Below, in pieces: positions 44,048-46,043 of a stretch of 64,000 nucleotides of DNA. The notes beneath the pieces were generated by a model. That model did no database searches. It was not told where the DNA came from and saw only the letters and a list, made by a program, of their open reading frames with translations. How positions within the stretch are numbered: the stretch's first letter is position 1; every line of letters begins with the position of its first letter. Source of the DNA: Escherichia coli (lineage in GTDB: Bacteria > Pseudomonadota > Gammaproteobacteria > Enterobacterales > Enterobacteriaceae). The DNA is taken from NCBI RefSeq assembly GCF_003334315.1, contig NZ_QOWR01000020.1, one strand, 5' to 3'. A program made the position numbers and the translations under genes.

Positions 44048-44665
44048 TTATTTAACAAAATAACGATAATGCCCCACCATCCGCCAGTTAAACAGCACAT
44101 CTTCTTCCTGCGCGCCTGCGCCAATGTTATGTATCACCAGCGGCGTACCGTCGCGGGCGAAGCCATCTGAAACCACCCCAATATGTGCCAGCCCGTTATC
44201 CAGTCGCCAGGAGACAATATCGCCCGCTTGATAGTCACTGGGGTTCTTGCTGGTGGGGCGTGTTTTATCATGGCGGCTAAACCAGGTTTCCAGATTAGGC
44301 ACCCGACGGTGATCGATGTTGCTGTCCGGGCGCTTTAACTTCCATTTTTGCGGGTACTCAGCAAAATTCTTCGCCATATCTTCGTGAACCAGTTTCTGCA
44401 AATCGACCTTCTGGCTGCGCAATGCGCGGATCACCACATCGGAACATACACCGCGTTCTTGCGGAACATCACCGCCAGGATAAGTAAGCTGCACATACGC
44501 CGGATCGTAAAATAGCGTGCTGCCAATTTGCTGTCTGGCACCGTCTGCGATGGCAAGGTTGGTATTGGCCTGGATTTGTACCACGGTTGGTGGAACGGCG
44601 GGAGATTTTAAGGAGTGGCTGGTAAATGCCGTTAGCAGGCTGAGCAGCGCCAGTGAAGCTTTCAT
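44048..44665 (-). CDS. yijF: DUF1287-family periplasmic protein
   Basis: 205 aa MKASLALLSLLTAFTSHSLKSPAVPPTVVQIQANTNLAIADGARQQ... with signal peptide. Confidence 0.9.
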   Translation of the reverse strand: MKASLALLSLLTAFTSHSLKSPAVPPTVVQIQANTNLAIADGARQQIGSTLFYDPAYVQLTYPGGDVPQERGVCSDVVIRALRSQKVDLQKLVHEDMAKNFAEYPQKWKLKRPDSNIDHRRVPNLETWFSRHDKTRPTSKNPSDYQAGDIVSWRLDNGLAHIGVVSDGFARDGTPLVIHNIGAGAQEEDVLFNWRMVGHYRYFVK

Positions 44666-44796
44666 CTGGTTCGTCCGTGAAAATAAGAGTCACAGATTCG
44701 ACCTTCCGGGCTAACGATTGTTCTGTAGAGAAAATGTCCAGAAGCGGATAAAAAATTCCTGAACAACGTGGGAGTTTCAGATTACTGGCACAGAGT

Positions 44797-44894
44797 GCCG
44801 GATGCGGAGTGAACGCCTTATCCGGCCTACAAAAGCACGCAAATTCAATATATTGCAGAGATTGCGTAGGCCTGATAAGCGTAGCGCATCAGGC
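44797..44894. repeat. BIME/RIP-type element between yijF and gldA
   Basis: GCCGGATGCGGAGTGAACGCCTTATCCGGCCTAC ... linker GCAAATTCAATATATTGCAGAG ... GTAGGCCTGATAAGCGTAGCGCATCAGGC. Confidence 0.8.
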
Positions 44895-44939
44895 AATTTT
44901 GCGTTCAAACTCCCGGACAAGCCGGGAGTTTGGAGTAGG

Positions 44940-46043
44940 TTATTCCCACTCTTGCAGGAAACGCTGACCGTACTGGTCGGCTACCAGCAGAGCGGCGTAA
45001 ACCTGATCTGGCGTCGCGCCGCCAGGCATGTTGTGAATGGTTTCACCTTCTGCACATGCCGCTTCTGCCACAATTCGCATTTTCGCCGGGACATCTTCTT
45101 TAATATCCAGTTGAGCGAGAGTTATTGGCAAACCTACCGCATGGCTAAGGGCAGCTACGGTTTCGATTTCCTCCACCGGCGCATTTTCCAGAACCAGCTG
45201 CGTCAGCGTACCGAATGCCACTTTTTCACCGTGATAATAGTGATGCGCGTCCGGGATAGCGGTCAGGCCGTTATGCACTGCGTGCGCCGCAGCCAGACCA
45301 CCACTTTCAAAACCAACACCGCTCAAATAGGTGTTCGCTTCAATCACGCGCTCCAGCGCCGGAGTCACTACATGCTGTTCGGCAGCAAGCATCGCTTTTT
45401 CGCCTTCTTCCAGCAGGGTGTTGTAGCACAGTTCAGCCAGTGCCAGCGCAGCCTGGGTGCACTTGCCGCCCGCCATGGTGGTCGCGCCGCTACGAGAGCA
45501 GGCACGCGCTTCAAACCAGGTTGCCAGCGCATCGCCGATACCCGCCGCTAACAGACGTGCAGGTGCGCCAGCGACGATTTTGGTGTCGACAATGACCATA
45601 TTCGGGTTATTTGGCAACAGCAGATAGCGGTCAAACTCACCCTCATCGGTGTAGATAACAGACAATGCGCTGCACGGTGCATCGGTAGAGGCGATAGTCG
45701 GTGCGATCGCTACCGGAACACCCATGAAATGTGCCAGTGCTTTGGCAGTATCGAGGGTTTTTCCGCCACCGATACCGAGAATTGCGCCACACTGCGCAGT
45801 CTCCGCGATGCCACGCAGACGGTCGATCTCATTTTGCGAACATTCACCGCCAAACGGCGCAATTTCTACTACCAGTCCAGCATCTTTAAAGCTTTTCTCG
45901 ACAGTGGATTGAGCAAAACCTAAAACAAATTTGTCACCCACCACTAACCAGCGTTCTGCCAGCGGCTTCAGGTATTCGCCCAGACGATTAATCACATCAG
46001 CGCCCTGGATGTATTTACCCGGTGATTGAATAATGCGGTCCAT
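44940..46043 (-). CDS. gldA: glycerol dehydrogenase
   Basis: 367 aa from [45 protein letters not shown]... Confidence 0.95.

Follow-up and report, generated by a model that had tools for sequence, protein, structure and literature searches.

A BIME-1 element between two hairpin copies downstream of gldA in Escherichia coli, a probable split terminator

Introduction

The bacterial interspersed mosaic elements (BIMEs), which are made up of repetitive extragenic palindromic (REP) units, are said to have been defined as a family by Gilson et al. (1991) and Bachellier et al. (1994). Two studies of 1993 reportedly described RIP, the repetitive IHF-binding palindromic element (Oppenheim et al.), and RIB (Boccard and Prentki), and binding of the integration host factor (IHF) is said to have been shown for the RIP/RIB family in both. 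Here we analysed a repeat of this already known kind, a BIME-1 (RIP, RIB) of the reference genome that lies between yijF and gldA, at positions 44797-44894 of a 64,000-nt stretch of Escherichia coli DNA (hereafter the window; RefSeq assembly GCF_003334315.1, contig NZ_QOWR01000020.1). The repeat stands between two hairpins, denoted hp1 (proximal to gldA) and hp2 (distal, with a U tract), and we consider it probable, with good confidence, that it is a single trimmed BIME-1 within the gldA terminator, that the whole terminator hairpin was duplicated around it, and that the arrangement has consequences for the gldA transcript and for IHF binding.

In the literature, BIME-1 consists of a z1 and a y REP, occurs as a single copy, and has a long conserved L linker, frequently with an IHF site in it (PMC3333891). 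The dissemination of REPs and BIMEs has been left unresolved (PMC3333891, PMC2817692, PMC3184786). The candidate transposase for REPs in the literature, RAYT (TnpA_REP), is described as leaving no duplication (PMC3333891), and the IS200/IS605-type mechanism that is usually invoked for REPs leaves no target duplication (PMC3333891, PMC2817692). The REPIN/RAYT systems (Bertels and Rainey, Nunvar et al., Ton-Hoang et al.) resemble BIME-1 in having an inverted REP doublet that can form one long hairpin and is presumed to be non-autonomous and mobile; filled BIME-1 sites differ in carrying a 19-27 nt duplication of the target hairpin and outer terminal inverted repeats (TIRs) beyond the REPs. The Correia/NEMIS element of Neisseria (155 bp) is similar in its TIRs, its length of ~155 bp, its central IHF site, its intergenic location, its long RNA stem-loop and its filled/empty polymorphism (PMC2229807). 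Miniature inverted-repeat transposable elements (MITEs) of the classical type have short, fixed target duplications (e.g., TA), whereas that of BIME-1 is the target stem-loop itself, and REPs were stated in a review to "not display MITE signatures" (PMC3184786). The repeat studied here is in itself a routine, catalogued object; the splitting of a terminator and the general duplication of hairpins may be the new part.

The repeat between yijF and gldA

A REP-linker-REP unit had been reported at 44797-44894 in an earlier note on this DNA, made from the letters alone, and it is present exactly there. That note had called the unit a RIP-like BIME, which suits a single-copy Y REP, IHF linker and short Z REP at the 3' end of ptsA-fsaB-gldA. 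The copy comprises the following features.

44797-44830, plus strand: Y-type REP, GCCGGATGCGGAGTGAACGCCTTATCCGGCCTAC, with 0 mismatches to the degenerate REP pattern (pattern search and alignment).
44831-44865, no strand assigned: L linker of 35 nt, containing GCAAATTCAATATATTGCAGAG at 44839-44860 (linker search and IHF scan).
44866-44894, minus strand: inverted short Z-type REP, GCCTGATGCGCTACGCTTATCAGGCCTAC on the minus strand (pattern search and alignment).
44895-44905, minus strand: terminal motif on the Z1 ('B') side, cut back, reading AACGCAAAATT in the gldA sense against a consensus of TGAGACTGATGACAAACGCAAAAYT (comparison of Escherichia species and an end consensus from 30 loci).
44778-44796, minus strand: terminal motif on the Y ('A') side, shortened, reading CAGATTACTGGCACAGAGT on the plus strand against a consensus, from the outside inwards, of TCAGATTGTTGACAAAGTGCGCTTTGTTCAT (end consensus from the 30 loci).

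We infer that the short Z REP is of the Z1 type because a short Z occurs in all three L-linked pairs of the window and BIME-1 is given as z1 plus y (PMC3333891). The copy shares with BIME-1/RIP/RIB the inverted Y (GCCGGATG...) and Z1 (GCCTGATG...) REPs, the L linker with an IHF site, the single extragenic occurrence and the outer motifs. Nothing essential sets it apart; its outer motifs are shortened, and its linker scores below the gathering score of the Rfam family ES036 (see below). The repeat is single, not tandem, in K-12 and in six other E. coli.

The REP, linker and hairpin features are not due to chance. The window contained nine matches to the REP pattern, compared with none in 100 shuffles, and two matches in a linker search allowing up to three mismatches, where none was expected; folded as RNA, the REP-linker-REP unit had a free energy of -41.7 kcal/mol (z = -5.1). 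Two further REP-linker-REP units were found in the window, at 15542-15639 (minus strand, pfkA-sbp) and 34960-35056 (plus strand, metJ-yiiX), in agreement with the earlier description of the yijF-gldA unit as the third. We also carried out the alignment with other RIP elements that had been suggested there: the linker matched those of both other units, the three aligned at 88% mean column identity, and they shared the linker core AAATTCAATA[A/T]ATTGCA.

Two hairpin copies around the repeat

The repeat is enclosed by two hairpin features.

44906-44932, minus strand: hp1, with an 11-bp perfect stem (CAAACUCCCGG/CCGGGAGUUUG) and a 5-nt loop (inverted repeat search, folding and covariation).
44748-44777, minus strand: hp2 remnant and ancestral U tract, AAACUCCCACGUUGUUCAGGAAUUUUUUAU in the gldA sense (Escherichia comparison, folding and the inverted repeat GGGAGTTT/AAACTCCC).

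The hairpin AAACTCCCGGACAAGCCGGGAGTTT had previously been noticed at 44907-44931, just downstream of the gldA stop. It is present, is extended by one more pair to 44906-44932, begins 7 nt after the stop codon, and covaries as an ortholog of the gldA terminator hairpin of other genera. This was seen by scanning each bacterial species, represented by a single genome, for the conserved codons at the C-terminal end of gldA, which gave 43 loci. Ten non-Escherichia taxa had a hairpin equally far from the gldA stop and, after it, a U-rich tail (e.g., GUUCUUUUAUG, or UUUUUUAUG in K. pneumoniae); this homologous hairpin (...ACUCCCGG-loop-CCGGGAGU...) was seen in Phytobacter, a Citrobacter, Pluralibacter and a number of Klebsiella species. 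When these ten taxa were aligned with three Escherichia (13 taxa), 93.7% of the cells were paired, and five of the 11 pairs had changed on both sides (20 cells). None of 500 shuffles reached the observed value, and sliding the partner by one to three columns lowered the paired fraction to 35-45%. The alignment is good evidence that hp1 is the ortholog of the ancestral intrinsic terminator hairpin of gldA and that its structure has been conserved. It should be noted that hp1 was classed as a former terminator on these comparative grounds and not on a consensus terminator scan.

Like canonical terminators, hp1 is a GC-rich hairpin shortly after a stop codon, orthologous to such terminators elsewhere; it differs from them in that no U-rich tract directly follows the 3' side of its stem. 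The Escherichia hp1 has lost its U tract and is a stem without a tail, the insertion having presumably moved the tract away by ~150 nt. An alternative is that hp1 is still a full intrinsic terminator at which the ptsA-fsaB-gldA transcript ends, so that the BIME is essentially never transcribed from gldA and matters at the DNA level only (IHF binding, gyrase, topology) or not at all. The stem is indeed very stable and GC-rich (-19.2 kcal/mol as RNA, z = -5.8), UUU directly follows it, and the first uridines of a U tract count most for termination. In addition, hp1 is invariant in seven diverse E. coli while the adjoining BIME varies, and it is also kept where the BIME is replaced by another repeat (the RSA allele below); this invariance is weak evidence, since the non-repeat flanks are nearly invariant too. 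However, the tail UUUGAACG has three U in its first 8 nt and a T-score of 2.45, compared with 2.8-4.6 for the outgroup tails, and hp1 was not called by the consensus terminator scan, which required at least five T in 8 nt. We regard a fully active terminator at hp1 as unlikely.

In the gldA sense, the order hp1, BIME-1, hp2 and TTTTTTAT was found in K-12, Escherichia sp. E1V33, E. albertii, E. whittamii and a genome labelled 'E. coli SCPM-O-B-8794' (locus L011). The motif TTTTTTAT, which always trails hp2, is identical to the tail of the K. pneumoniae terminator, and this U tract is now ~150 nt from hp1. The two hairpin copies of L011, AACTCCCGCGTCAGCGGGAGTTT and AAACTCCCGCGTTAGCGGGAGTTT, are ~90% identical (~21 of 23 positions, counted by eye), and both are stable (hp1 approximately -20 kcal/mol, hp2 -18.9 kcal/mol). 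In the other genomes hp2 becomes gradually weaker, its folds having the following energies.

hp2 of Escherichia sp. E1V33: -11.9 kcal/mol.
hp2 of E. whittamii: -11.5 kcal/mol.
hp2 of E. coli O104: -7.5 kcal/mol.
hp2 of E. albertii: -7.1 kcal/mol.
hp2 of E. coli Nissle: -5.1 kcal/mol.
hp2 of K-12 (44748-44777): -3.4 kcal/mol, no better than shuffles.

In K-12, hp2 is therefore a tail without a good stem. The 8-nt complementarity of GGGAGTTT and AAACTCCC was considered as a long-range RNA stem around the BIME and rejected, as the minimum free energy structure does not use the pairing; it is better read as a remnant of the duplicated hairpin. The simplest reading of the species comparison is that a BIME-1 inserted into the gldA terminator before Escherichia diversified, duplicating the hairpin. 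We draw the duplication at gldA from the hp1/hp2 pairs of the other Escherichia species together with the behaviour of BIME-1 at other loci, described next. The earlier note had missed this link, namely that its hairpin is one copy of the duplicated insertion target.

Hairpin duplication at other BIME-1 loci

Metagenome contigs were scanned for a pattern of the Z1 tail plus the linker core, giving 120 loci that represent 30 distinct sites with 160-nt flanks (L052-L171). Across the 30 loci, a complete BIME-1 is ~155 nt long and has conserved outer motifs, which read TGAGACTGATGACAAACGCAAAAYT and TCAGATTGTTGACAAAGTGCGCTTTGTTCAT inward from the two ends and which are probably those that Gilson et al. 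(1991) reportedly named 'A' and 'B'. The ends form TIRs of T[G/C]AGAYTGWTGACAAA that lie outside the REPs, with the consensus ends TGAGACTGATGACAAAC... and, for the other end reverse-complemented, TCAGATTGTTGACAAAG.... Both terminal motifs are shortened at the gldA copy, and that on the Z1 side lacks 11 nt that are present in E. whittamii and L011.

The left and right flanks of each locus were compared by local alignment, against a null built from the flanks of mismatched loci. Flank similarity was above the null's 95th percentile at 11 of the 30 loci and above the null maximum at seven (Mann-Whitney p = 0.002). The flank repeats that cleared the null adjoin the ends of the element, with one exception, a tandem-array locus (cluster 2). 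The flanking hairpins vary in sequence between loci yet match within a locus. The gldA locus was missed by this test because its end motif is truncated. At the pfkA RIP (window 15490-15700), a degenerate hairpin copy, AGGCAGATTCCTTTAGCCT (~15508-15526), precedes the element, and the intact pfkA terminator, AGGCGGATTTCTTCCGCCTTTTTT (~15670-15693), follows it, which is the same arrangement as at gldA.

A side observation concerns orientation. In about eight of nine duplication-bearing loci (by eye, a small sample), the split terminator has its U tract on the side of the Y REP, so that Z1 is proximal to the upstream gene. The RIPs at gldA (minus) and pfkA (plus) likewise have equal orientation relative to transcription. 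This hints that polarity may come from the terminator and not from replication.

Four sites could be compared in filled and empty states.

metE-ysgA, L089 filled and L172 empty: E. coli has a single hairpin, AACCGGGTGGTAATACCACCCGGTCTTTTCTC, and a relative has hairpin, element, hairpin and TTTTTCTC.
ymdF-rutG, L062 filled and L174/L175 empty: filled in 1,734 of 5,426 E. coli genomes, including K-12; the empty site has a single hairpin, CACCGCCGGTWACCCCGGCGGTTTTCTG.
srmB-yfiE, L068 filled and L176 empty: filled in 2,525 genomes; the empty site has a single hairpin, AATGCCGGGTTTAAGCCCGGCATTATTTTTAT.
yajD-tsx, L064 filled and L177 empty: the empty site has a single hairpin, AAAAATGCCGGATATGGAATCCGGCATT.

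All four pairs have one hairpin when empty and two around the element when filled. The duplicated segment is the whole stem-loop, 19-27 nt long, its length tracking that of the hairpin, and the loop sequences show that the copies are direct, not inverted, repeats. At ymdF-rutG, srmB-yfiE and yajD-tsx, filled and empty alleles still segregate within E. coli. In natural isolates, Bachellier et al. (1997) reportedly observed "excisions of a whole BIME-1", an observation that would be compatible with recombination between flanking hairpin repeats. No mention of a flanking hairpin duplication was found in the literature on REPs and BIMEs, the original descriptions of the 1990s being outside the search.

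These pairs bear on a further alternative, in which no target was duplicated and hp2 is the product of chance or of local gene conversion, or the mobile element itself includes the hairpins. The K-12 segments GGGAGTTT and AAACTCCC match over just 8 nt, for which we estimate that ~0.7 occurrences would be expected by chance in 300 nt. However, the hairpins are specific to each locus yet match within it, and hence are not cargo of the element; the empty alleles have exactly one copy; and other Escherichia have near-perfect hp1/hp2 pairs. We consider this alternative very improbable.

Several observations weigh against an insertion with hairpin duplication, at gldA or as a general rule. About 60% of the 30 loci have no detectable flank repeat, which could reflect decay, trimmed ends or a different history. 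The metJ-yiiX RIP (34960-35056) has no convincing flank repeat either, so the rule is not visible at every locus. In K-12, hp2 shares only 19 of 25 positions with hp1, and K-12 alone would not convince of a duplication. Among the retrieved loci, yijF follows gldA only in Escherichia, leaving no strictly orthologous empty site. At the four polymorphic loci, the difference between the alleles could stem from insertion or from excision. The missing terminator-scan call for hp1 also belongs here.

With respect to the signatures of MITEs, BIME-1 has TIRs at the 30 loci and, in the four pairs, a target duplication with single-copy empty sites, although of an atypical kind. We tentatively suggest, as an idea for which the odds are somewhat less than even, that BIME-1 and possibly the RSA-like repeat described below are structure-targeted MITEs with TIRs of ~16 nt, which insert at the GC-rich stem-loops of terminators and copy them in full (19-27 nt). 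If so, cleavage or joining would take place at both feet of a hairpin or cruciform that has been extruded, and not at a fixed stagger, and every insertion would split a terminator into a tail-less stem and a tail with a freely decaying stem, gldA being one old example. A target duplication of hairpin length is a specific and testable mechanistic constraint on the spread of REPs and BIMEs.

Possible consequences for the gldA transcript

The gldA locus would thus illustrate how insertion of a repeat dismantles a terminator, leaving a strong hairpin without a U tract and a U tract 150 nt off behind a decayed stem. We propose that the element is a ~130-nt, partly trimmed copy of a ~155-nt palindromic, non-autonomous element (terminal motif, Z1 REP, IHF-site linker, Y REP, terminal motif), and that, in an ancestor of Escherichia, it entered the intrinsic gldA terminator, copying the whole hairpin. 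The proximal copy would have kept its stem, and the distal copy would have kept the U tract while its stem drifted and, in K-12, decayed.

On the gldA mRNA, hp1 should still fold and, with only UUU before GAACG, would probably act as a leaky terminator. Transcripts reading through it would carry the REP-linker-REP hairpin of -42 kcal/mol, and the two hairpins together could block 3' exonucleases and set stable 3' ends. Final termination might occur further downstream, either Rho-dependently or by reading into yijF, and some read-through may reach yijF because hp2 of K-12 no longer folds. REPs and other stem-loops have been described as barriers to 3' exonucleases at Rho-dependent ends (Dar and Sorek, PMC6061677). 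The split terminator predicts leaky termination, REP-protected 3' ends and possibly read-through into yijF. The earlier proposal that hairpin and BIME together form the 3'-end structure of the ptsA-fsaB-gldA transcript is plausible and, by the comparisons above, partly supported.

Variation at the gldA site

Of the complete E. coli genomes (5,426), 4,589 had the BIME-1 allele at yijF-gldA, with a query coverage of 80% or more. In most of the other genomes (~15% of all), the BIME-1 with both its end motifs is swapped, inside the same pair of hp1 and hp2, for an unrelated palindromic repeat of ~152-154 nt that occurs in ~6 copies per genome and has GGGGAGAGGGTTAGGGTGAGGGG-type palindromes without a REP or an IHF linker. 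This replacement of window 44778-44905 was seen in L002 (783-962; strain 405) and in L005. The replacing repeat is presumably the RSA of the K-12 repeat catalogues; no copy of the RSA-like motif was found inside the K-12 window. It shares with BIME-1 the slot between hp1 and hp2 and has a similar terminal motif, and differs in its unrelated interior. Its ends (L002 777-812 and 936-972; L051 381-416 and 536-572) resemble the BIME-1 terminal motif, e.g., TGAGATTGCTAACAAAC compared with TGAGACTGATGACAAAC, which suggests, as far as such end similarity allows, that the two repeats share end-recognition machinery and target sites.

Other alleles retain the BIME-1 in altered form. In O157:H7, the Y REP has stem-disrupting changes. 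In Nissle and G749 (L003, L004), the IHF core is altered from AAATTCAATAT to AAATTTACTAT (TCAA to TTAC, relative to window 44839-44856), which should weaken the match to the IHF consensus, while hp1 is unchanged. In Escherichia sp. MOD1-EC7003 (L050, 5578-6265), the RIP is inverted relative to gldA and present in at least 4.2 tandem units with a period of ~160-168 nt, the locus record stopping inside the array. BIME-1 is described as a single-copy element, from which this array departs. Such an inversion would result if the 3' arm of hp1 recombined with the 5' arm of hp2.

This variation could be taken to mean that the element is selfish DNA in decay, a relic with no function, for which neither IHF binding nor RNA structure matters at gldA. 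Both terminal motifs are trimmed, the IHF core and the Y REP are damaged in the strains just named, and the genomes with RSA instead of BIME-1 keep the flanking genes. On the other hand, the element has been kept at the site since before the split of E. coli and E. albertii, although retention alone is no proof of function, and the Z1 REP and linker core do not differ among K-12, E1V33, E. albertii and E. whittamii, unlike the Y REP and hp2, which drift. A purely functionless relic appears doubtful to us.

The IHF-site linker

The linker has an IHF-like core, ATTCAATATATTG, at 44843-44855 in its middle, one mismatch from WATCAANNNNTTR. In a scan of 44701-44960 (260 nt) for WATCAANNNNTTR with at most one mismatch, the linker core was the sole IHF-like site. 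The core is kept across the three RIPs of the window and across the 30 BIME-1 loci, which were themselves picked by that motif. The IHF binding reported for the RIP/RIB family leads us to expect that the linker DNA of the gldA copy probably binds IHF as well. An IHF ChIP-seq paper (Prieto 2012) made no mention of REP as a repeat element.

The linker matched the Rfam family ES036/CssrF (RF02751) at 44831-44873 (plus strand) with 34.8 bits (E = 8.7e-5), below the gathering score of 37.6, which the linkers of the other two RIPs in the window exceeded (46.2 and 39.6 bits). By these matches, ES036/CssrF, listed as an sRNA, is in effect the BIME-1 (RIP) linker. As a side observation, the modelled strand is antisense to the mRNA of the upstream gene in all three matches (15563-15604, minus; 34994-35035, plus; 44831-44873, plus).

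Genes and other features of the window

A 401-nt stretch around the repeat is 100% identical to MC4100 and other K-12-like strains, which identifies the window as E. coli K-12; adding 4092992 to a window position gives the coordinate in NC_000913.3 (MG1655). The open reading frames (ORFs) match the MG1655 annotation, so that the earlier assignments of yijF and gldA were right. The neighbouring genes are as follows.

44940-46043, minus strand: gldA coding sequence (CDS), with its stop codon at 44940-44942 and the C-terminus ...QRFLQEWE* (ORF list, MG1655 annotation and translation).
44048-44665, minus strand: yijF (DUF1287), the next gene on the same strand, starting 83 nt past the U tract of hp2 (ORF list and MG1655 annotation).

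The minus strand also carries fsaB and ptsA, whose ORFs were matched to MG1655, and the repeat is extragenic, with the gldA stop (44940) on one side and the yijF start (44665) on the other, which places it at the 3' end of ptsA-fsaB-gldA. These three genes have been treated as a single operon (PMC6643234). At the yijF-gldA site, the RefSeq annotation of MG1655 has CDS rows only and no repeat_region. The repeat is reportedly entered as a RIP in the GenBank/EcoCyc annotation, which the RefSeq rows did not confirm. The literature search returned no paper naming gldA together with yijF, and gldA, yijF, fsaB and the coordinates of the locus are all absent from the supplements of Adams et al. 2021.

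Two other REP arrangements were observed in the window. A tandem BIME array at 60356-60700 contains the same Y REP three times, at 60421, 60544 and 60667, with a period of 123 nt and in alternation with GTCGGATGCG-type inverted REPs. A REP pair at 10479-10561 matches the Rfam family naRNA4 (RF02564, nucleoid-associated ncRNA 4) with 78.6 bits, above the gathering score.

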